DNA from: a virus
Strand: one strand, 5' to 3'
Virus record (IMG/VR): IMGVR_UViG_3300045988_175595
Coordinates: 101,597 to 165,596 of that record
Length of the DNA stretch: 64,000 nucleotides
Shown here: in pieces, positions 7,261-63,875 of the stretch
How the letters are laid out: each line of letters opens with the position of its first letter
Numbering within the stretch: the stretch's first letter is position 1
Made by a program: the position numbers and the translations under genes
Notes under the pieces: model-generated
Told to the model about the DNA's origin: nothing
What the model saw: the letters and a program-made list of their open reading frames with translations, nothing else
Databases searched by the model: none

Positions 7261-8382
7261 TTAATTTGCTTTAAAATTATAAATTGGTTTAATTATTTTT
7301 ACAATATCAACTGTATCTTTAATATTGTTTATAATTTCTTCTGAAGGTTTATATGCACCTTTAGATTCGTCTATTGTTGCATTATTACAAGTTGAACTAA
7401 AAATATTATTTTCTTTCATTGCATTAATATCATCTTCAACTTTTAACAATTCTTTAGCTTTAGAACGGCTCAAGATTCTACCTGCACCATGAGGAGCAGA
7501 ATAATTCCAATCTGGATTTCCTTTTCCTATAGCTATTATGCTACCATCTATTCTATTTAATGGTATTATTACTTTTTCTCCTTTTTTTGCAGATATAGCT
7601 CCTTTTCTTAATATTTTATTAGCTAAATCTATATAGTTATGAATTGTTGTAAAATGACTTTCTTCTTCCCAATTCATTTTATTGATTATAGTATCTGCAA
7701 TAGCCTCTCTATTAAATTGAGCATAAGCTTGTGCTATACCCATATCGTAAAGATAATTTTTTAAATTATCTCCTTGTAAATAGCATAAGGCTTTTGGAAC
7801 TTTATTTATTTTCGGATCATCATTTATTTCTTTAATAGCTAAATTTTGATAATATTCAGCTATTTGTTTTCCTAAACAACTTGATCCAGAATGTATAACT
7901 AAATATATATTATTTTCTGAATCTTTGTTCATTTCTATAAAATGATTTCCTCTACCTAATACACCTATAGATTTTTTTGCTATGTCTATATTTATATTAG
8001 ATTTACATTTTAATAGAGATAAATCTACATATTTATTATATGGATGTTCTTTATCTCTTATATTGGTTCCGTTAGGGATATATTGTTTTATACATTCATC
8101 TACTTTCTGTAAATCAATGTCCTCTAGTTTTTGTTTTAATTTTACTACAAACATTCCACAACCTATATCACTTCCAACTAAATTAGGAGTAACTTTGTCA
8201 TCGATTGTCATTGTAGTTCCTATTGTACACCCCGCGCCTGCATGTGTGTCTGGCATAATCTTTATAACAGAATTTTTATATGCCTCTTGATTACACAATT
8301 CAATAATTTGTGATATTGCCTCTTGGTCTATATCAAATGTATAAACTAAAGCAGTATTATATTGTCCTTGTAAAGGTATCAT
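7261..8382 (-). CDS. rtcB: RNA 3'-phosphate/5'-OH ligase RtcB (compact 373-aa form)
   Basis: Motifs MPDTHAGAGCTIGTT, GRGNHFIE and HSGS match the RtcB metal- and GTP-binding signatures. Confidence 0.8.
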   Translation of the reverse strand: MIPLQGQYNTALVYTFDIDQEAISQIIELCNQEAYKNSVIKIMPDTHAGAGCTIGTTMTIDDKVTPNLVGSDIGCGMFVVKLKQKLEDIDLQKVDECIKQYIPNGTNIRDKEHPYNKYVDLSLLKCKSNINIDIAKKSIGVLGRGNHFIEMNKDSENNIYLVIHSGSSCLGKQIAEYYQNLAIKEINDDPKINKVPKALCYLQGDNLKNYLYDMGIAQAYAQFNREAIADTIINKMNWEEESHFTTIHNYIDLANKILRKGAISAKKGEKVIIPLNRIDGSIIAIGKGNPDWNYSAPHGAGRILSRSKAKELLKVEDDINAMKENNIFSSTCNNATIDESKGAYKPSEEIINNIKDTVDIVKIIKPIYNFKAN

Positions 8383-10139: not shown

Positions 10140-10292
10140 TGAAAACTTATAAAAAGTTATAAAATAAACTTTTACGTTTCATTCTTGATTCAACGTGACC
10201 TATTTCACTATATAAGCTACTCTAGTTTGGTATATCACTCCACAAGCGTAAATTCCCGACTAACTATCGGTACATATCTATAATTGCTTTCA
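10140..10292 (-). ncRNA. Candidate TnpB-associated omega RNA (reRNA) / IS right end
   Basis: This segment is locally GC-richer than its surroundings (ttgattcaacgtgacctatttcactatataagctactctagtttggtatatcactccacaagcgtaaattcccgactaactatcggtac). It is placed where TnpB guide RNAs are normally encoded. Confidence 0.4.
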
Positions 10293-11465
10293 TTATGCTA
10301 CATTATAGATTGCTGAATCTTTTAAATTTAATGATGCTTGATAATCTCTATCTATTATATTTCCACATTCTGGACAAATATAAATTCTATCACTAAGTTT
10401 CAAATCTTTTTTAATAGAACCACATTCATGACATAACTTGCTTGAAGGGAAATATCTATCAACAATTCTTAATTCTATATTATTCCATTTACACTTATAT
10501 TCTAATTGTCTGCGAAATTCATATAATTTCTGTTGTTGAATAGCTTTAGATATATGCTTATTTTTTATCATACCACTTATATTTAAATCTTCTATTGTAA
10601 TAAACATTGGTTTTCTGTTTACTATTTCAGAAGTTACTTCATGTAAATAATTATCTCTAATGTTAGTTAGTCTATGATTTAATTTTAAAAGTCTTTTTTC
10701 ACTTTTTACAATATTACTTGTTTTGCAGTAACTATCTCCTTTCTTATTTATTAGATATTTTTTAGATATCTTACGTTGTAACCTACGTTTTCTTTTCTCT
10801 AATTTTCTTATCCTTTGTGTTTTATTTATATTATTATAAATATTTCCATCAGAACATATTGCTAAATCTTTAACACCTAAATCTATTCCTATTCCTTCAT
10901 TTGTAGGTATTTCTATATTATCTTCATATTCAATACCAACACATATAAACCAATTAACTCCGTCATAAACCACATGAGGATTTATATATTTACAATTAGT
11001 AGGTATTTTATTCTTTTCTGATAATTTAACCCAATTTAATTTAGCTTTATTTTTCTTTTTACTTGTTGCAATATTCTCTAATTTAACATGAGTATCAGTA
11101 AATTTAATTTTTATATTATCTACATAAAAACTAGGTCTGTCTAACTTTTTTGATTTAAATTTAGGAAATTTAGATTGTCCTTTAAAGAATCTTTTATAAC
11201 TCATACAAGCATCTTTAATAGCCTGTTTAGTTACATTATTACTTATAGAATATAGCCACTTATATTCTTCTTGTTTTTTTAATTTAGTAAATTCTTTTCT
11301 TAACTCATAGTCAGAAATAAATTTACCACCATTTTTATAATTTTCTTGTTGTCTAGCTATTGTCCAATTATAAGCAAATCTTTTTACTCCACAAAACTGA
11401 AACATCTTTGTCTGTTGTTTATTATTAGGCTTTAACTTAATCTTTAATGTTTTTATCATCCTCAA
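10293..11465 (-). CDS. tnpB: TnpB (IS605 OrfB-family RuvC-like nuclease with C-terminal zinc finger)
   Basis: GIDLGVKDLAICSDG RuvC-I-like motif and CHECGS...CPECG zinc finger. Confidence 0.75.
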   Translation of the reverse strand: MRMIKTLKIKLKPNNKQQTKMFQFCGVKRFAYNWTIARQQENYKNGGKFISDYELRKEFTKLKKQEEYKWLYSISNNVTKQAIKDACMSYKRFFKGQSKFPKFKSKKLDRPSFYVDNIKIKFTDTHVKLENIATSKKKNKAKLNWVKLSEKNKIPTNCKYINPHVVYDGVNWFICVGIEYEDNIEIPTNEGIGIDLGVKDLAICSDGNIYNNINKTQRIRKLEKRKRRLQRKISKKYLINKKGDSYCKTSNIVKSEKRLLKLNHRLTNIRDNYLHEVTSEIVNRKPMFITIEDLNISGMIKNKHISKAIQQQKLYEFRRQLEYKCKWNNIELRIVDRYFPSSKLCHECGSIKKDLKLSDRIYICPECGNIIDRDYQASLNLKDSAIYNVA

Positions 11466-51980: not shown

Positions 51981-52220
51981 TCATTTATCTTCTCCTTCTT
52001 CTATCTCTCTTCTTAATGTTATTATTGTCTTATCTTCATAATATTTATATATTAATCCTCCATATCCTATTTTCTCTTTTATTTTTTTTAATACTAATTC
52101 TAATTCATTTAAACTTCTTATTCTTATTAATATTGTCTCTTTATCTATTTTCTTTTCTATGTATCTTAATATGTCTTTTTTATCTTCTATGTCTTCTATT
52201 ATTTTATTCATTATCTCCAT
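51981..52220 (-). CDS. K/E-rich hypothetical small protein
   Basis: 79-aa ORF. Confidence 0.3.
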   Translation of the reverse strand: MEIMNKIIEDIEDKKDILRYIEKKIDKETILIRIRSLNELELVLKKIKEKIGYGGLIYKYYEDKTIITLRREIEEGEDK

Positions 52221-52430
52221 TTCTCTTTTTCTCCTTTCTTCTTACTTTATTATGTATATATTTATTTTACTACTAGTAATACTATTCTTCTTTATTTTTA
52301 CTATTCTTTATTGTTTTCTTTATTCTATCTTATTCTCTCCTTTTAATAGCTTATTTCTTCTTCTTTTACCTTTCTTTTCTTCTTTTTATGTTTATTTTTT
52401 TAAAACGGAGTCTTAAACTATAAATAATTA

Positions 52431-52560
52431 AATAAATATAATATATATTATTTTAACCAAATAAATATAATATATATTATTTTAACCAGCTAAATATAAT
52501 ATATATTATTTTATATTATTTAAACCAGCTAAATATAATATATATTATTTAAACCAGCTT
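52431..52560. repeat. Four tandem direct repeats (iteron-like) of about 29-38 bp: TAAATATAATATATATTATTT(TA)AACCAGC
   Basis: Read directly at 52431-52460, 52461-52490, 52491-52528 and 52529-52558. Confidence 0.7.
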
Positions 52561-52974
52561 ACGCTCGAAAAAATTATTACTTTTTCTTATAAATATTAAA
52601 ACGGGCTCTAGCGACCTATTTAATAATAAAAATAGGCACTCGTGTATACCCACACAATAAGCCATAAATAATATCATACAATTCAAAATAGATGTATTTA
52701 AATAGATAATTAAATATAAAGCGATTTAAGAGAGATAAAAGATATATATGTATAGGGATACAAGGGACGAAATAAAAAACGTATATAATAAAAACTAACG
52801 TTAAAAAAATACTAACGCTAAAAAAGAGATAAGGGCTCGCTAACGCTCGCCCTCGTATGTAAGTTAGTCCGATACTATTTAGGCACTCGTGTATAAACGT
52901 GTCCATAAAAAGACAAGTATTAACTAAACTTAGGAATTAGTATTGAATTGTAAATAGAAAGTTTAAACAAATAA

Positions 52975-53007
52975 CCCGTAATAAGATAGCGATAGCTTTT
53001 TGTTTTT
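52975..53007. promoter_or_regulatory. Copy of promoter-like motif CGTAAT(C/T)AAGATA-N5-8-TTTTTGTT (minus-strand AACAAAAA..TATCTTGATTACG)
   Basis: Plus-strand sequence cccgtaataagatagcgatagctttttgttttt. Confidence 0.35.
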
Positions 53008-53981
53008 AAAAAAAGTTTATATAATAAATAGATAGTTTAGTTTAATACTTGTAAAAATATTAAATAATCTATCTATAATATAAACTTATATTTTTTGTAT
53101 GGAATAAGAGATATATAAAAATAAATATCTAGAATAAATTATATATATCTCTTATGTGGGGTTAATAATGATTAAACACTTTTGCGATGCCCAACTATGT
53201 TCTCTTCGTCTTTTCTGAGATTAAGGGCCCAACCTTATTATATTTTTGGTTATTATATATAATAAGGATTTTTAATTGATTTTAGCATTTTTGACACTCT
53301 TGCCTTATCAATTTATTATTTAAATGTAAGGTTTATTAAATTATTTTTATTCTTTACCTAGGATAGAATAATAATTTAATAATTTCTATCTTGTTTTATT
53401 AACAAATTATTAATCAGATAGATATAAATTAATAATTGTTAAGTGAGTCAACATTCACATCATCTTATACATTTATCACTTACAAATTATATAAGAATTT
53501 AGGAAAAGTATTTATTGGCTACTTCCTTGACCTTTTTAATTTTATTTTTGTGTTATTAAGGTGTTATTAAGCGAAACTGTACATTATATAAAAAGAAAAA
53601 CATTAAAAAGCCAATAAAAAACAAAAGAAAAAATTAGGCAACTAAATTAATTTAAAATTACTATTATGATTTCCTTTGCCTTTCTTAATTTATTTTTTAT
53701 TTAATTTAATATTTTTTTTGGAACTATACAACTAGCTCCTTAAATCATATAAGCTGTTAAAAGTGGTATAGAAACTTACTCTTAATAGCTTATATGATAT
53801 TAGCAACCAATTGATAATAAAAAATAATATATTTATATATAATACTTTAAACCCTCAAGGCAAATCAGTCCTTTTTATATTGAGCTTATATATAATCATT
53901 ATACTAGCTATCTATCGCATAATGAATCACTCCTCTCTTAATTATCAATTAATTTATTTTTGAAAGTGATTTAATAGAAAA

Positions 53982-54797
53982 CTAATTATTTATATGGATA
54001 CCAGAACCACCCATTTTATTTCTTTGATGATTAACTTTTCTTGTTATAGTATTTTTAGCATTCAATATTTGATTGCTTGCCTTTAACAATTCTGGGTCTG
54101 TTGTCATAGCAGTTTTTGTTTCTTCTACTGCTTGGACACCAGAATTTAATAATGATGCACCTATTTTAATAGCTGAATGGAACAATCCTTTACCTAAATT
54201 CATTGCTCCTTTTCCTGCTATTTTAGCTACAGGAGTAACTAACTCTGTTGCAATATAATTAGCAGAGTCAGTAGTTGTTTTAACAGCTCTATCTGTAACA
54301 TCAACTGATTTATTAATTATATTTTCAGCTGTATACTTTTTCTGGATTTTTGCATATTCCATAGGAGTAACATTTTTAATATTTAATTCTATGATATCAG
54401 ATTTTAGATTTTTACTAATCTTTGTTTCTGTTATACCTATAGAAGATAACCAATTATCAAACTTTTGCGCATTCAAAGTCTGATAAAAATCTAAAGTTAA
54501 ATCATAATTATCTACTTCTTGTAGTTTTTGTTCTCTTTTTATTCTTTTTAAGTTATCTTCTTCTTGTTGTATTCCTTCTACTGTTTGTTGAAAGAATTCT
54601 TGTTTTTGTGCTGAAGCAACTACTTTTTCTTCTGGAGTAGATGTATCAATTACTTCTATTTTTCCTTGTTTCTCTAATATATTTAATGTAGCTATAACAA
54701 GGTTAATATCTTCAAGTGGCAAACTTAATTTTTCTGCTAATTCTGGAACAGAGTAAGTTTTTTGCTGATATTTTATCATATCATTAAAATTAATCAT
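53982..54797 (-). CDS. Hypothetical protein
   Basis: 271-aa ORF. Confidence 0.4.
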   Translation of the reverse strand: MINFNDMIKYQQKTYSVPELAEKLSLPLEDINLVIATLNILEKQGKIEVIDTSTPEEKVVASAQKQEFFQQTVEGIQQEEDNLKRIKREQKLQEVDNYDLTLDFYQTLNAQKFDNWLSSIGITETKISKNLKSDIIELNIKNVTPMEYAKIQKKYTAENIINKSVDVTDRAVKTTTDSANYIATELVTPVAKIAGKGAMNLGKGLFHSAIKIGASLLNSGVQAVEETKTAMTTDPELLKASNQILNAKNTITRKVNHQRNKMGGSGIHINN

Positions 54798-55049: not shown

Positions 55050-55517
55050 TTAATTTTTTGCTGGGGCTAACATTAAACTATTAACTCCAATTCTGGCTAA
55101 TTTATCTGTATATTTATTCATTTCTTCATCTTTAGATAATAATCCTTTTTGATGAGAAATTATATTATGCATTCTAAATCTGCCAGCTATTTTATTACAT
55201 AATGGTTCTATTTTGTCCCATAAATCTCGATTACTCTTTCTTTCTGAATAACCAATTACTCCTGAGACTAATGATTCATTATCACAATATATATCAAATT
55301 TTACACTTGATTTATATTTTGATATTATTAATAAAACTTGATAAAAAGCCTCCAATTCTGCTCTTATTGCTGATTGTGGCCCTTTTCTTAATTTTCCGTT
55401 GGCTTGTTGTTCAATATTATATTCTTTATCACATATAATATATCCCCACCCTCCAACTAAGGTTTTGTCTTTCATCAATTTGCAAGCTCCGTCTGTGTAT
55501 ACTTTAAGCTTTTTCAT
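55050..55517 (-). CDS. rnhA: Ribonuclease HI
   Basis: VYTDGAC (catalytic D), ELEAFYQVL (catalytic E) and IYCDNESL (catalytic D) in RNase H order. Confidence 0.65.
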   Translation of the reverse strand: MKKLKVYTDGACKLMKDKTLVGGWGYIICDKEYNIEQQANGKLRKGPQSAIRAELEAFYQVLLIISKYKSSVKFDIYCDNESLVSGVIGYSERKSNRDLWDKIEPLCNKIAGRFRMHNIISHQKGLLSKDEEMNKYTDKLARIGVNSLMLAPAKN

Positions 55518-58865: not shown

Positions 58866-61800
58866 TTATTTAGGCATTACTATTCCATCCATTAATATTC
58901 TATTTAATTCATCTTGTTTACTTTCTTCTTTAGTTTCTTCTACTTTTAAAGTATTTTGAGGCATAGCAATACCATCTAATAAAATATTACTATTTGGTGT
59001 TTCTTGATCTTTATCTATAGCAACTTCTCTTTCTACAGATGTAGGCATAACAATACCATCCATTAATATATTATTAATATTATTATTGTTAACTGGAGTA
59101 GAAGATAGAGAAATATTATTTGTAGGCATATTTATTCCATCCATTAATATACTATTTATCTTTTCTTTGTTTTCTTTAATAACTGATGCTTGTTCTGCTG
59201 CTATATCATATAGTCCATCAGCGTTAAGATACATACAAGTTGATTTTTCAGAAACAAAGAAATTAATTGTTGCTGTTTTAAAATCTATACTATCTAAAAC
59301 GTTTGCAACATAGCTATTAATAGCTAGATTACACACTTTAAATTCTGCACCTGTAGAAGTTACTGCCATTATTACATTGTAATCAGATTTACCAGTGTAA
59401 ATATTTTGATCTGCTTTAATATATTTATATTCTACTATTGTAGCATTTCTTAATTCTTGAGAAACACCTTGTTTAGTTATTGGAAGATAAACTCCTTTAT
59501 TATAATTAGAAGTTGAAACTTTTCTTTCAGTTTCTACAAAGTATTTACCATTGCCATCTGTAATAACAACACCATCATCAAAAGTAGCTTTCTTATTATC
59601 AAAAGTAATAAATTCATTATCTTCAGTTATTCCATGTCCTTTATTAGCTGATACATGTTTACCTAATAAATCAGGAAGATAAACAACTTTCTTATTATCA
59701 TCTATAGCACAAATGATTCTTTCAGCGGCAACTATATTTAATCCTTCTGATTTTAAGAATGCAACTAATTCTTTTTCAAATATAGTTATTAAATTAGTAT
59801 TAACTGTAGCACAAGATTCAATATCTTTTTCATAGCTATCAATACTATAGCATACAATAGCTCTTCCTATTTCTTCTGGAGTTAATACAGTTTCAGCTGA
59901 TAATAATGATAATTCAGCATAGTTTCTACAAACTTCTAAGATAGTTGTTTTTAAATATTTCTTAGTTGTTATCTCTTGTTCTTCATCTTTATCTTTTATA
60001 TTGATACAAGTTAATTCTTTAAGAGTTTCGTTTATATTTATATTCATTCTCATAATAGTTCTTAATAACTTATCAATATTAAATTTAGAAGTTTTATCTT
60101 TATCTCCTACGTTTATGTCATCTTCTTGAGTTTTTATCTTTTGTCTTAATTCATTTGATTCTGCACTTTTTATTTGAATTTCTAATTCTTTTGCTACCAT
60201 AACAATAGCTAAGTTCGCATAATCAACTAATTCATTTCTTATTGCTCCTAATGGATCAACAATACAAGGAATCTTTTCTTGATTATATTCAAACATAAAT
60301 TCTTCTTCTGTCATTTCATCAGTTACTAAGAATTCTCCAGTTGCAGAAGCAGCTAATTTATTTTTTAATAATGGTAAATTAAAGAAATTAGTTTTAGTGT
60401 ATTCTCCTTCTATTATTTCATTTAGTATTTCTACATTTTCTTCAAATAACATATCATTTGTTTCTTTCTCTTCATAAATATCTAATGGAGCTGTTAACAT
60501 GTTCTTATATGAACCACAAGCTCTGATTACATCTTTTAAGTTAAACATATCAACAACCTTGTACATGTTTTTAGCTGCATCAATAGAAGTTTCTCCTGGA
60601 TATCTATTACAATATAAAGTATCTTCTAAGAAAGCTATAGTTTCTTGTAATGTTCCATTTCCTTCTTTGTATCTTAACATAACTTCTTCACACATTCTCT
60701 TACTTAAAGTAACTTGAGTTCTAGTTTGTCCATTTCTTAATCTATAAGTTTTATATGATTTATCTGTTTTTACTGGAGAGATATAATCTTTAGTGTGTTC
60801 AACTCCAAAGAACATAGATATTGTTTTAACTATTTTATCTTTAACATTATCTGAAACATTTGGAGATATTAATGCTAAATATAATAATGCATTATTATAG
60901 AATCCAGTAGATATAAAACCTATAGGAGCAACTGGATTTAAGAAGTAATCTAATATTAATCTACCAGTATTTTCAAATGTTATACTATAGTTTCCATCAA
61001 AATCTTTAACACAAGAACTTTGACTGTTTTGAGCATCAACTTTCATATTATTTTTACCTATATTAGATTTCTTACTAATACCAAAAGCGGCTTTCTTCTT
61101 ATTAACAGCTGACTCTTCTTTCTTTATTACAGATTTATTACATCTACCAAATGAAGTTGCAAAACCAGATAAGAATTTAGCAATACTTAAAGAGTTTAAT
61201 GATTCATAGTGACTAATATCTCCTTCATCTGGATCGTTTTCATCTAATGATCTATCAACAATAGTACCAAAATCAGTAATTTGAGATAATATATCAACTA
61301 CTTGTTTATCTTTAAATATTTGCATAGAGTCTATATCAAAGTCAGCTCCATCATGTTTTTCCATGAAATAGTGACAAGCTGGAATTAATATAAATCCATC
61401 CATATCTAATACATAATCAGTTAAGAACTTCTTAGCATTATTAGTTAAATTCATCCTTTGTATTCTATCTAATAATTCTTCTGTACCTACAACTTTAAAA
61501 GTAGTAACAGCTTTATGACCACTGATTGGATGTCTTGCTGCTGATACTTTTTCTATTTCTCCTGCAACTAATGAATGAGAATAACATTCACCATCATCTA
61601 ATAATCTAGTACCAAATATAGGAGCTGGATCTGCTTGAATAACAGTATAGTCTGCATCAACATCTACTCTTAACATATTTAATAAGTTACCAGTAGAAGT
61701 AACTATATTATTAAGAATTGATTTAACAACTCCAGGGAAATAAGCTAATATTTCTTTTGGTGATAATTTATATAACCAAGTTGCAGTTTGTTGATCATTA

Positions 61801-63875
61801 TTGTATCTAATAAATTTACTAGTATCAACATCTACTGATTCTATATTTGAACCATCGTCTGATAATTTAATATAGATACCTAATTCTTCGAATTTAGCCA
61901 TTATTGTTTTCTTAGCTCTTTCTAATAATAATTCTGTAGCTTGTTCTTCGTTTTGAATTAACATCATAAAGTTAATAACCATATTTAATCCTGTATTTGC
62001 TTCATGTGCTTTCTTTAAGCATACTAAATCAAATTCATTATCATGTTCTACTAACTTCATACAGTTTTCATCAAATACACCATCTAATTTACTCATAGCA
62101 TCATCAAGTTCTTCTTTAGATAATTCATTAATATCTAAATCTTCACCGTCTATTACTAATTTAGCTACAGATGCATTATTTTCTAATAAAGCTAAAGCTA
62201 ATGTTTCTAAGTTCTTTCTCTTTTGTATTTGAGATGAGTTCTTATTTCCGCCTCCTCTTGCTTGTAAACAAATACCTAATAATTCTTTATTAGATACTGA
62301 TAAGTTACATTGTTGTAAATATTCTAATACCATTTCAACAGATATGAAACAAGTACCATCTTTTGTATTGCTACAATCAATAACATTTGCATTTTCATTT
62401 TGAGTATAAGGAGTAAAGTAATCGTTTTTATTGTATCCAGCTTTATGAGCTATATTATTAAATACAATATAGTTTCTTACTCTACCTATCTTTTTAGATG
62501 GAGTAGAAACCATCATAACTCTTGTCATAGCTTTGAATAATTTAACTAATGAATTATATTTAGCAAATTCAACAGTTCCATCTTCATTCTTTTTAGTTAC
62601 AAATGACATAGAAAATGCATTGTTTGAAGCTTTGTCTAATAATTCAATTCTTCTATCAACATTTGTTAATTCTGTATCTCCATGTTTAAAAGTATTAACA
62701 GCTGCTAATGAAATAGAACCTGTTCTTAATCCAGATGGAGTTACTCCTAATAATTGGTATTCAATTGCATATTCACCTTCTCTTACATAATTCTTTATTT
62801 CTGATCTTGTACAGAATACTGATCTAGATAATCCAGATTTCATTCTTATAATGAATATTCTAGTATCTTTTTGATGACAACCAATCATTATCTTGAATAA
62901 GTTTATTAATTTCTTCTTATTGTTTCTTAATTGTGTTCCCATAGATATACTACAAATTTCTTCTGTATATTTACCTTCAAGAGTCATAGCTTTATCAGCC
63001 ATTACACCTTCTTTTGTTTCACAAGCTCTTAATAATTCTGATTCTTGAAGAGGTTCAACCATTACTGCAACTCTTAATTCTTCTGTATTATAATCAGTCT
63101 TATAAGCTTCTAATTCTATTCTGTTCTTTAATACAACTTCCATTTCTTTAGTGAACATTTCAAAAGCTTTTTGTTTTATATAACTCTTAGTCTTTGAAAC
63201 AGTCATGAAATCAGCTATTAATTTTGCTTTAGCTTGTGAGTTTGGTAAATATTGAATTAAGAAGTTAAATTCTTTTATATCTAAGTCTGCTACTTTCTTA
63301 TTAGCTAATACTTGAGCTTTTAATGAATTAACAGCAAACTTTCTGATGTTTTTATTTCTCTTAGCTACTTCTTCTGCTGCAAAATGTTTCTTATCAAAAG
63401 CATCTTTAACTACTTTACTCATTGGAGCATATAAATCATAGTTTATTTCTTCATATACTGATTCCATGATTTCATCTTTAATTGTTTCTTTAGTTTCTTT
63501 TATCTCTTCTACTTTTACTCCTTTGTTGTAAGCTGCTACAGCTTTCTTAATATTTTTTACTACTATTTCTGCTTCTGTTATTGTATCTTTATTTTCATCT
63601 AAGATAGTTGGTATTATAACTTCATCTCTTATTACTTTTGTGATGTGTTTTGATCCTTCAGCTAATTCATTTACTCTTCTTACTACTACTTCCATATTTA
63701 ATCCCCCGTTTATTACTGTATTATTCATTTTTACTCCACCTTCCATTACTTCATTGTTTACTACTGTGTTATTGTTATTATTCATTGTATTTTCCCCCTT
63801 TAAAGTTGTGTTTACCATTTCATTGTTTTTTGTGTTCATCATTTTCTTTTCCTCCAATTTTTCATATATATACAA
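58866..63875 (-). CDS. Giant (1669 aa) protein with a beta-prime-like catalytic loop; candidate single-subunit multisubunit-type RNA polymerase (YonO-like or crAss-like two-barrel RNAP), with C-terminal tandem ILMDGIxMP repeats
   Basis: The motif HDGADFDIDSMQ (protein residues about 840-850, DNA about 61330-61365) resembles the universally conserved beta-prime NADFDGDQM Mg-binding loop and the DxDxD triad of crAss-like and YonO RNAPs. There are four C-terminal repeats of (N/R)IL(M/L)DGI(N/V/A)MP(T/Q/K). Confidence 0.45.
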   Translation of the reverse strand: MYIYEKLEEKKMMNTKNNEMVNTTLKGENTMNNNNNTVVNNEVMEGGVKMNNTVINGGLNMEVVVRRVNELAEGSKHITKVIRDEVIIPTILDENKDTITEAEIVVKNIKKAVAAYNKGVKVEEIKETKETIKDEIMESVYEEINYDLYAPMSKVVKDAFDKKHFAAEEVAKRNKNIRKFAVNSLKAQVLANKKVADLDIKEFNFLIQYLPNSQAKAKLIADFMTVSKTKSYIKQKAFEMFTKEMEVVLKNRIELEAYKTDYNTEELRVAVMVEPLQESELLRACETKEGVMADKAMTLEGKYTEEICSISMGTQLRNNKKKLINLFKIMIGCHQKDTRIFIIRMKSGLSRSVFCTRSEIKNYVREGEYAIEYQLLGVTPSGLRTGSISLAAVNTFKHGDTELTNVDRRIELLDKASNNAFSMSFVTKKNEDGTVEFAKYNSLVKLFKAMTRVMMVSTPSKKIGRVRNYIVFNNIAHKAGYNKNDYFTPYTQNENANVIDCSNTKDGTCFISVEMVLEYLQQCNLSVSNKELLGICLQARGGGNKNSSQIQKRKNLETLALALLENNASVAKLVIDGEDLDINELSKEELDDAMSKLDGVFDENCMKLVEHDNEFDLVCLKKAHEANTGLNMVINFMMLIQNEEQATELLLERAKKTIMAKFEELGIYIKLSDDGSNIESVDVDTSKFIRYNNDQQTATWLYKLSPKEILAYFPGVVKSILNNIVTSTGNLLNMLRVDVDADYTVIQADPAPIFGTRLLDDGECYSHSLVAGEIEKVSAARHPISGHKAVTTFKVVGTEELLDRIQRMNLTNNAKKFLTDYVLDMDGFILIPACHYFMEKHDGADFDIDSMQIFKDKQVVDILSQITDFGTIVDRSLDENDPDEGDISHYESLNSLSIAKFLSGFATSFGRCNKSVIKKEESAVNKKKAAFGISKKSNIGKNNMKVDAQNSQSSCVKDFDGNYSITFENTGRLILDYFLNPVAPIGFISTGFYNNALLYLALISPNVSDNVKDKIVKTISMFFGVEHTKDYISPVKTDKSYKTYRLRNGQTRTQVTLSKRMCEEVMLRYKEGNGTLQETIAFLEDTLYCNRYPGETSIDAAKNMYKVVDMFNLKDVIRACGSYKNMLTAPLDIYEEKETNDMLFEENVEILNEIIEGEYTKTNFFNLPLLKNKLAASATGEFLVTDEMTEEEFMFEYNQEKIPCIVDPLGAIRNELVDYANLAIVMVAKELEIQIKSAESNELRQKIKTQEDDINVGDKDKTSKFNIDKLLRTIMRMNININETLKELTCINIKDKDEEQEITTKKYLKTTILEVCRNYAELSLLSAETVLTPEEIGRAIVCYSIDSYEKDIESCATVNTNLITIFEKELVAFLKSEGLNIVAAERIICAIDDNKKVVYLPDLLGKHVSANKGHGITEDNEFITFDNKKATFDDGVVITDGNGKYFVETERKVSTSNYNKGVYLPITKQGVSQELRNATIVEYKYIKADQNIYTGKSDYNVIMAVTSTGAEFKVCNLAINSYVANVLDSIDFKTATINFFVSEKSTCMYLNADGLYDIAAEQASVIKENKEKINSILMDGINMPTNNISLSSTPVNNNNINNILMDGIVMPTSVEREVAIDKDQETPNSNILLDGIAMPQNTLKVEETKEESKQDELNRILMDGIVMPK

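Follow-up and report, generated by a model that had tools for sequence, protein, structure and literature searches.

What does a phage genome keep in a stretch of DNA that holds no genes? This question is raised by a gap of 1761 bases at positions 52221-53981 of a 64,000-nucleotide stretch of viral DNA (IMG/VR record IMGVR_UViG_3300045988_175595, positions 101,597 to 165,596; the whole stretch is referred to below as the window, and its numbering is used throughout). An earlier reading of the letters alone (the sequence-only reading) took the region for a candidate origin of replication or genome terminus, on account of iteron-like tandem repeats and repeated GC-richer boxes. A noncoding module, conserved and specific to one strand, occupies the gap, which separates two gene blocks of the same orientation. 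All of its conserved structure lies on the gene-sense (minus) strand and includes a covarying three-way-junction element in the 5' half of the gap, both of which the sequence-only reading had missed. As the most likely single reading, it is tentatively proposed here that a structured RNA gene comes first in the gap and that a module for priming or origin function, unidirectional and coupled to transcription, follows it.

The gap is bordered by a gene for a protein of 271 amino acids (aa) at 53982-54797 (minus strand) and by one for a 79-aa protein at 51981-52220 (minus strand). That the region is free of genes was borne out, as 52221-53981 contains no conserved open reading frame (ORF). The largest ORF on the sense strand, and the sole sizeable one, spans 52616-52906 (96 aa); it was ruled out as a gene, because the ORFs of relatives over the same boxes differ in frame or length or are missing. 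In a near-identical contig, gene callers called nothing in the gap. Relatives were obtained by a protein search and contig look-ups, and the DNA examined in them was ±10 kb around their genes. Homologues of the 271-aa protein share 33-65% identity with that of the window (a family of 21 proteins), and the gap was kept after the same gene in 11 further relative loci that were fetched; in every locus with enough sequence, gene callers placed no sizeable gene in the 1.1-1.9 kb after the 271-aa gene. Past the gap comes a block of small genes that varies by lineage, as opposed to the conserved genes upstream. When the gaps were compared by BLAST and aligned with MAFFT, short, strongly conserved blocks were seen amid diverged DNA. 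Locus queries of IMG/VR with single proteins (the 271-aa protein, an AAA ATPase and a 1669-aa protein) confirmed no relative, and no nucleotide match to the gap or to the 24 kb around it was found among 50,697 deposited phage records.

Constraint within the gap is strongest on the GC-richer boxes, which are kept where the flanking protein is 33-65% identical and are assigned to conserved hairpins specific to the gene-sense (minus) strand. The elements concerned are as follows.

52880-52895, minus strand: box 1; TAGGCACTCGTGTATA reads TATACACGAGTGCCTA on the sense strand, with the core ACGAGTGCC; exact copy.
52633-52648, minus strand: box 2; second exact TATACACGAGTGCCTA, the 3' part of which enters a small hairpin, GCCTATTT/AAATAGGT (read from the sequence).
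52826-52859, minus strand: hairpin H; a covarying stem around the 14-mer CGAGCGTTAGCGAG (52836-52849), with the tip GCGTTAGC.
52794-52825, minus strand: degenerate copies of the H tip, TTTTTTAGCGTTAGT and TTTTTTAACGTTAGT in sense direction.
52557-52564, minus strand: mini-hairpin-type motif GCGTAAGC, inside CGAGCGTAAGC, just before the tandem repeat.

Every repeat that the sequence-only reading had listed was recovered at its stated place, and these repeats are commoner than chance. Its two copies of TAGGCACTCGTGTATA lie at 52633 and 52880 and nowhere else in the 64 kb; its taggcactcgtgtata is the sense-strand box ACGAGTGCC, a core that within the 64 kb is confined to the gap; and its actaacg(t/c)taaaaaa boxes, present as ACTAACGYTAAAAAA at 52794 and 52811, are the degenerate H-tip copies (actaacgYtaaaaaa). 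The box described as gggctc..cgctcgcc is hairpin H on the sense strand; it was found as GGGCTC-N5-CGCTCG at 52833, in a single full copy, the 'gggctc' at 52603 being only partial. All relatives have 2-5 direct copies of ACGAGTGCC in the same orientation, the last of which forms the 5' arm of H.

Across 12 lineages the 14-mer CGAGCGTTAGCGAG is invariant but for three lineages in which a T has become C and one that lacks a single base. The stem around it occurs in compensatory variants (GGGC/GCCC, GTGC/GCAC, GAGCGC/GCGCTC, TGCC/GGCA, TAGCC/GGCTA and GCAACC/GGTTGC), and in an alignment of the 12 lineages (A3), 91.7% of cells were paired and five of the six pairs were compensatory. The covariation score was 0.80, compared with 0.23 for shuffled alignments (0/500), and slid controls gave at most 0.18. 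Six cells hold G-U pairs, with the G on the 5' side, which amount to C-A mismatches on the opposite strand; the fold energy (ViennaRNA) is -14.5 kcal/mol for the sense strand and -10.1 kcal/mol for the antisense strand. In the fold predicted by the same program, the stem leads to a 2x2 internal loop (G-A/A-G), and two G-C pairs beyond it are capped by a GUUA loop. The tip reads GCGTTAGC, GCGTCAGC or GCGTAGC in 12/12 lineages; each of the loops concerned (GTTA, GTCA and GTA) agrees with GCGNNAGC/GCGNAGC, and no GNRA loop is among them. In relatives, GCGT(T/C)AGC recurs in perfect form two to five times altogether, at intervals of 18-30 nt, and 2-4 perfect copies stand where the window has its degenerate ones. 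In 11 gaps, GCGN(1-2)AGC was counted 33 times on the sense strand vs 5 times on the antisense strand; its sense-strand density is 2.13 per kb in the gaps compared with 0.048 per kb in the flanks (~44-fold), and most copies stand in arrays of two to five, 18-30 nt apart.

Mini-hairpin DNA, with the sequence GCGNNAGC or GCGNAGC, is extraordinarily stable as DNA and much less so as RNA, and the primase-dependent origins of St-1 and alpha3 carry exactly GCGTTAGC (2026 review, PMC13037366). The octamer was confirmed in alpha3 at 5048-5055, in the G-H intergenic region. The consensus, which the tips in the gap fit, is found where priming depends on primase or on RNA polymerase. By its motif, H would be classed with G4-type or mini-hairpin priming signals; this likeness is taken as a resemblance of short motifs and not as homology. 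Other roles were considered for the same elements. An intrinsic terminator was ruled out for H, as no consistent T-run follows the stem, and general phage promoters were ruled out for the boxes, each of which is confined to the gap within the 64 kb. Hairpin promoters of the N4 type are unlikely, since the stable hairpin would form on the sense strand and not on the template strand of the downstream genes.

The 14-mer was also encountered elsewhere. In metagenome contigs of 27-72% GC (L141-L260), CGAGCGTTAGCGAG and variants with GCGAAGC, GCGTAGC and GCGCCAGC form intergenic tandem arrays at more than 120 loci, with flanks that are complementary more often than in shuffles. These arrays gave no Rfam match, no paper with the string was found, ACGAGTGCC did not co-occur with them outside the phage family, and no relation to the phage element was established beyond the shared hairpin.

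The second conserved structure lies further upstream in the direction of the genes and comprises two parts.

53236-53268, minus strand: hairpin P1 (minimum free energy fold), directly 5' of block A.
53181-53235, minus strand: core of block A; TTGG, then P2 (GCCC/GGGC) enclosing P3 (TCTC/GAGA) with the loop GAAAAGACGA, then ATCGCA.

With its three-way junction, block A is a new element; it covaries strongly and matches no Rfam family. The arms of P1 are wholly different in the window (W), L008, L012, L013 and L015, yet complementary, and include U-G wobbles in L009, L012 and L265; a third helix, P4, which completes the three-way junction, is present in most relatives (P1 and P4 were read from the sequences). 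The P3 loop is conserved as GAAAAG(A/T)CGA. For P2 and P3 together, 97.2% of cells in alignment A2 were paired and 7/8 pairs were compensatory, the covariation score being 0.81 compared with 0.29 after shuffling (0/500) and at most 0.19 in slid controls; in alignment A6, 96% of cells were paired. A covariance model (R1) scored 67.6 bits at block A of the window and 45-78 bits in relatives; it located the element in all lineages except L264 and gave no second match in the window. In L013, the lineage with the longest gap, a second, diverged block A with its pairs kept (11136-11199, plus strand; 50.7 bits) lies ~300 nt upstream of the main copy, which suggests that the element can duplicate. A stricter pattern scan for block A yielded one more family member in IMG/VR and nothing in the genomes of 185,579 species, so that the motif is so far found in this phage family only; the loose pattern GAAAAGACGA..ATCGCA gave chance matches only. 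No Rfam 15 match was obtained in the gap of the window at E up to 5, nor at gathering score in the gaps of seven relatives.

Block A behaves like an RNA gene, with possible pairings of CGA with UCG (loop to tail) and of TTGG with CCAA. This bears on the main rival explanation, namely that the gap is purely an RNA locus, in which block A, domain B (see below), the boxes, H and its repeats make up one or two stable noncoding RNAs with no role in DNA replication, the invariant motifs being protein-binding sites (sponge or scaffold) or tertiary-contact elements. Every structure lies on the strand of all genes, as such a locus would have it, and the three-way junction, the invariant loops, the possible CGA/UCG pairing and the 96-97% of paired cells make block A RNA-like. 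Further structures of the gap that bear on this explanation are listed here.

53729-53813, minus strand: terminator-like or processing-site hairpin (inverted repeat I5), long and very stable, just after the 271-aa gene.
53107-53148, minus strand: hairpin after block A, AAGAGATATATA...TATATATCTCTT.
52913-53052, minus strand: domain B; ~140 nt, closed by an 18-bp helix, ACAAGTATTAAACTAAAC / GTTTAGTTAATACTTGT; W clade only.

The fold of 53725-53815 (minus strand) has an energy of -33.6 kcal/mol (z = -7.3), and L008 has a hairpin of other sequence at the equivalent place (read from the alignment). For 53100-53155 (minus strand), the corresponding values are -13.0 kcal/mol and z = -3.5; in the L015 clade, a T-run comes after the equivalent of the hairpin at 53107-53148, which there scores as an intrinsic terminator. 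In this clade, terminator-like sites before a hammerhead-like sequence and right after block A were found four times, compared with 0.4 expected; the site after block A was seen in L265. The sequence in question is a Hammerhead_3 match at L265 2467-2525 (plus strand), which is full length on the model and on the sense strand, has a one-base insertion after CUGAUGA, and scored 33.4 bits, the gathering score being 48.5 (E = 4.6e-6 for a search of 121 bases). The same sequence is present in L015, L016, L017, L263, L264 and L266 and absent from the window, and its stem I covaries between L015 and L017 (read from the alignment). The L015 clade may hence hold a candidate hammerhead-like ribozyme upstream of block A. 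Domain B gave 18 pairs in RNAalifold on five lineages, eight of them with compensatory changes; single-sequence folds give the same helix (z = -3.3), and its U-G wobbles are C-A on the other strand.

An RNA locus would agree with the ribozyme-like sequence and the terminators on the same strand in one clade, with the long, wobble-containing helix of domain B and the -10-like box just 5' of it, and with the fold of H under RNA parameters, in which tandem G-A pairs and then G-C pairs lie between the stem and a tetraloop. On the other hand, the loops GUUA, GUCA and GUA are not of the GNRA type, and the RNA versions of mini-hairpins are far less stable than the DNA versions (PMC13037366). Moreover, an intrinsic terminator precedes the boxes and H of the L015 clade, no clear promoter separates it from them, and no Rfam family matches any part of the gap. 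On balance, the RNA-only explanation is considered somewhat unlikely.

In the L015 clade, two conserved small hydrophobic ORFs of 27-41 aa with a charged tail were also observed at the start of the gap (L015 gap, 23-115 and 235-342). Equivalents are present in L016 and L263-L265, and the hammerhead-like sequence sits between the ORF pair; the products are reminiscent of type I toxins or small membrane peptides. Of the second small ORF, the window holds only a relic, CTTAATAACAC twice at ~53550-53571.

At its downstream end, the gap holds two more conserved elements.

52400-52413, minus strand: CCGTTTTAA box with a small hairpin (direct repeat D15; second copy at 52596-52609).
52254-52281, minus strand: promoter-like block TATTAC-N15-TATATAC, ~35 nt upstream of the ribosome-binding site of the 79-aa gene.

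The CCGTTTTAA box is kept in all relatives, with 'CGTTTTA' as invariant columns of the alignment, and its stems in L012 and L013 contain sense-strand G-U pairs (read from the alignment). The conserved form of the promoter-like block, A[TC]TAC-N16-19-TATATACACA, was found in each relative locus that was scanned, a single time at the end of the gap; in L266 the regular expression matched once more, outside the gap, and the block of L265 overlaps a TTGATA-16-TAAAAT match. In the opposite direction, the best sigma-70-like match of the region (TTGACA-17-TATTAT, 11/12) lies at 53291-53319 on the plus strand, antisense to the genes, and points to the 271-aa gene; its TTGACA is kept in L008, and it may be an antisense promoter.

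With a promoter-like block kept at the gap end in every lineage, the region could be one of transcriptional control only, in which the upstream block is terminated, one or more promoters serve the downstream small genes, and the boxes act as operator or enhancer sites for a phage regulator, such as the HTH proteins of genes just past the gap in some relatives. Terminator-like hairpins are present, the gap of L263 is directly followed by HTH_3/XRE genes, which in L265 lie close to it, and the downstream genes vary by lineage as against the conserved genes upstream. However, H, domain B and block A covary, and sites bound as duplex need no compensatory changes in a hairpin. The boxes lie 500-700 bp from the promoter-like block and are invariant, unlike the candidate regulators, which are unconserved across lineages. 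A role in transcriptional control alone is therefore improbable.

The repeat which had suggested an iteron origin stands apart from all of the above.

52430-52560, no strand assigned: AT-rich tandem repeat; unit of 29 nt (one unit of 39), four copies; lineage-specific and polymorphic.

The four tandem copies were confirmed: the 20-mer AAATATAATATATATTATTT occurs exactly four times on the plus strand, at 52434, 52463, 52492 and 52531 (spacings of 29, 29 and 39), and each unit contains the palindrome AATATATATT. With up to three mismatches, AAATATAATATATATTATTT has 10 matches compared with 1.6 expected, and none of 100 shuffles reached ten. Tandem Repeats Finder reported 52430-52513 with a period of 29 (2.9 copies, 96% matches) and 52473-52550 with a period of 39. 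Among near-identical genomes, the window and L005 have four copies and L002 has three. Relatives have no homologous AT-rich repeat, showing either none or short unrelated repeats near the same position. The interpretation as iterons was not upheld, given three vs four copies in near-identical genomes and absence from relatives; the repeat is a recent, unstable amplification, and the alignment of the AT-rich DNA tentatively suggests that its unit was derived from the single-copy promoter-like block of the relatives. Repeats like those of type III antitoxins are unsupported, as the repeat is unconserved and nothing was recognised by Pfam or PHROGs in the downstream 79-aa and 163-aa proteins.

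The contigs L003, L004, L006 and L007 stop exactly at the first repeat copy, whereas L002 (with one unit fewer), L005 and the window read through it. Contig ends in the repeat are hence attributed to assembly breaks and not to termini. The pattern weighs against a genome terminus or a pac/cos site recognised by terminase, to which the contigs that end inside the gap (L003, L004, L006, L007, L008, L016 and L264) would otherwise point. Repeated boxes are typical of terminase binding sites, and the gap has repeated boxes, but the gap lies in the interior of contigs of 248 and 252 kb, and no terminase or structural genes are recognised nearby. A terminus or pac site at the gap is very unlikely, and no gene for a terminase or a replication initiator, to either of which the sequence-only reading had linked the boxes, was recognised beside the gap. 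There is a lesson here for sequence scans: the eye-catching AT-rich repeat is the least conserved part of the gap and breaks assemblies, and contig ends within it should not be taken for termini.

The order of the elements in gene direction forms the basis of the proposed priming or origin module. After the terminator-like hairpin at 53729-53813 come P1, block A and domain B, then the ACGAGTGCC boxes, hairpin H and the mini-hairpin copies, followed by AT-rich DNA, the CCGTTTTAA hairpin and the promoter-like block. The first part would be a structured RNA gene, consisting of P1 and block A, with a hammerhead-like sequence before it and a terminator after it in one clade. The second would be made up of direct, invariant motifs that work as single-stranded hairpins of the sense strand, with one to four GCGT(T/C)AGC copies after H, and the third of easily melted AT-rich DNA, which in this lineage has been amplified into the 29-nt repeat, and then the promoter of the downstream genes. 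In a logic like that of ColE1, transcription in gene direction would open the region, and the primer for a leading strand whose synthesis runs with the genes could be supplied by the transcript itself or by an R-loop that the phage RNase H trims; an RNase H gene is situated at 55050-55517, two genes upstream of the gap. The displaced sense strand would fold into the mini-hairpin array and recruit primase or RNA polymerase for the other strand. Hairpins on the strand displaced by transcription or an R-loop would be on the lagging-strand template of a fork that moves with the genes. The conservation, covariation and strand specificity of these elements, the identity and enrichment of the motif and the instability of the AT-rich repeat come directly from the data; that the hairpins act as DNA, that priming occurs at the gap and that the gap is an origin is inferred. 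A more specific form of this proposal, in which phages of ~250 kb from the gut start replication, or second-strand priming, from a single-stranded mini-hairpin array (CGAGCGTTAGCGAG, tip GCGNNAGC) exposed on the displaced sense strand by transcription of the three-way-junction RNA, is decidedly doubtful.

Several observations weigh against a priming or origin function. The likeness of H to G4-type and single-strand-origin (sso) signals extends over 8-9 bases; with alpha3, eight bases are shared and the flanks differ (GGAAGGCGTTAGCCGCCTTCC in alpha3), and a BLAST search of the H region against plasmids gave no match. A hairpin of RNA would account for the covariation and the G-U (G-T) pairs as well as one of single-stranded DNA, and nothing terminator-like lies between domain B and H in the W clade, so that H may be part of a transcript. 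Tandem arrays of CGAGCGTTAGCGAG occur in many unrelated metagenome contigs with mixed orientation to the neighbouring genes, and the 14-mer may be a generic stable hairpin rather than a priming signal. No gene for an initiator, primase or helicase was recognised by Pfam or PHROGs among the flanking genes, and the predicted structure of the 271-aa protein (mean pLDDT 65.8) matched no fold in the PDB with E < 0.05. Lastly, cumulative GC skew falls monotonically over the 64 kb, the sign of the skew being unchanged at 52-54 kb, and the inflection that the sequence-only reading had named as a check is thus missing from the gap; the test was computed on the 64-kb window and is informative for a bidirectional origin only. 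Replication that runs one way, with the genes, would agree with the uniform gene orientation and the monotonic skew, which give an origin no positive support. The earlier idea of an origin accordingly survives in part: a conserved, functional noncoding module is present and its GC-richer boxes are conserved and resemble priming-site sequences, but the AT-rich iterons are unconserved and a skew inflection was not seen.

As regards the protein encoded next to the gap, the C-terminal half of the 271-aa protein is highly conserved and glycine-rich (VAPVAKIAGxxxMNLGKGLFH), with a low-confidence model, and the N-terminal 160 residues have a confident model in which a small winged-helix-like unit is followed by a ferredoxin-like one (order read from the secondary structure), with no significant match in the PDB. 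The window is AT-rich phage DNA of ~25% GC, with essentially all ORFs of at least 100 aa on the minus strand. Exact protein matches came from gut metagenomes, in contigs of up to 245 kb, and the contigs of relatives measure 248 and 252 kb, which makes the family one of ~250-kb gut jumbo phages. Among further genes are NAMPT and an amidase endolysin, whose choline-binding repeats make a Firmicute the probable host. About 19 tRNA genes are clustered at 621-8382 (minus strand), flanked by an RtcB ligase (7261-8382) and a DUF2828/DUF7788/VWA protein (1536-3092, minus strand; phrog_850, annotated 'RNA-binding protein'); together they look like an RNA repair module, and the Rfam scan reported no Y-RNA-like family. 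A RAGATH-18 RNA (69.2 bits; 10182-10246, minus strand) adjoins a TnpB/OrfB_IS605 gene (10293-11465, minus strand), and the pair is read as an IS605-family element with its own guide RNA inside the phage. The 1669-aa ORF (58866-63875, minus strand) has no match in Pfam, PHROGs or PDB sequences, and its homologues in relatives have a weak Rho_N match. It contains HDGADFDIDSM, which we take to resemble the catalytic motif NADFDGD of the beta' subunit of multisubunit-type RNA polymerases, and it may be a phage-encoded single-chain RNA polymerase.

How does the gap compare with known systems? Like the iteron origins of lambda, P1 and many plasmids, it has direct repeats beside AT-rich noncoding DNA. 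Unlike in those origins, its AT-rich repeat is unconserved and varies in copy number, and no Rep-like gene is adjacent, nothing of the kind being recognised in the flanking genes by Pfam or PHROGs. Conserved tandem initiator sites are thus not provided by the 29-nt repeat, and the GC-rich motifs are clustered and conserved as hairpin tips, with cores of 8-9 nt that stay the same even in distant lineages and show no co-variation with a cognate initiator. GOLLD and ROOL, which are large structured RNAs of phages and prophages, share with the gap several covarying domains over hundreds of nt and, as carrier, a phage with a tRNA cluster, but neither these nor other Rfam 15 families matched the window or its relatives at gathering or permissive thresholds.

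Among transcription-primed origins, ColE1 uses RNA II, RNase H and a primosome site on the displaced strand; T4 oriF and oriG and the primary origin of T7 belong to the same group. In these, as in the gap, a promoter or structured transcript is followed by hairpin signals on the displaced strand and then by AT-rich DNA; an RNase H gene nearby and a unidirectional strand logic are further parallels. There is no sequence similarity, and block A is new.

In rolling-circle plasmids, a hairpin loop of the single-strand origin bears CS-6, TAGCG(T/A), and RSB is present as well (PMC4598088; PMC8860593). TAGCGA is present in the loop of H and TAGCGT in the downstream copies, and palA of pT181 reads GTTAGCGAG, which is 9/9 bases of the H loop. 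As in ssoA of Firmicute rolling-circle plasmids, H is orientation-specific and noncoding and has the hexamer in a hairpin loop, and some lineages read (A)TGCCGAG, like the RSB core, directly beside the loop. These RSB-like bases lie in the covarying stem, and the W clade reads GGGCGAG or GTGCGAG. In ssoA, by contrast, RSB (TTATGCCGAGAAAATTT) is found in the loop-distal stem of an imperfect palindrome of ~160 nt; no long palindrome surrounds H, which moreover belongs to a large double-stranded DNA (dsDNA) phage and not to a plasmid.

G4-type signals (G4, St-1 and alpha3) resemble H in being noncoding, strand-specific hairpins with a GCGNNAGC tip. The gap differs from them in its array of two to five copies, in the tandem G-A flanks (CGAG...CGAG) and in its location in a 250-kb dsDNA phage, and no CTG start triplet follows H. 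If the more specific form of the proposal, with priming from the mini-hairpin array, is correct, the priming logic of G4-type and sso-type signals, which belongs to small single-stranded DNA replicons, would extend to giant dsDNA phages, and the metagenomic arrays of the 14-mer would be a widespread, undescribed class of hairpin signals. The origins of uncultivated jumbo phages are essentially unmapped, and a conserved, precisely delimited candidate module with named bases would open the question to testing. The mini-hairpin array ties the work on the G4, St-1 and alpha3 origins, the CS-6 element of sso and mini-hairpin DNA to large dsDNA phages.

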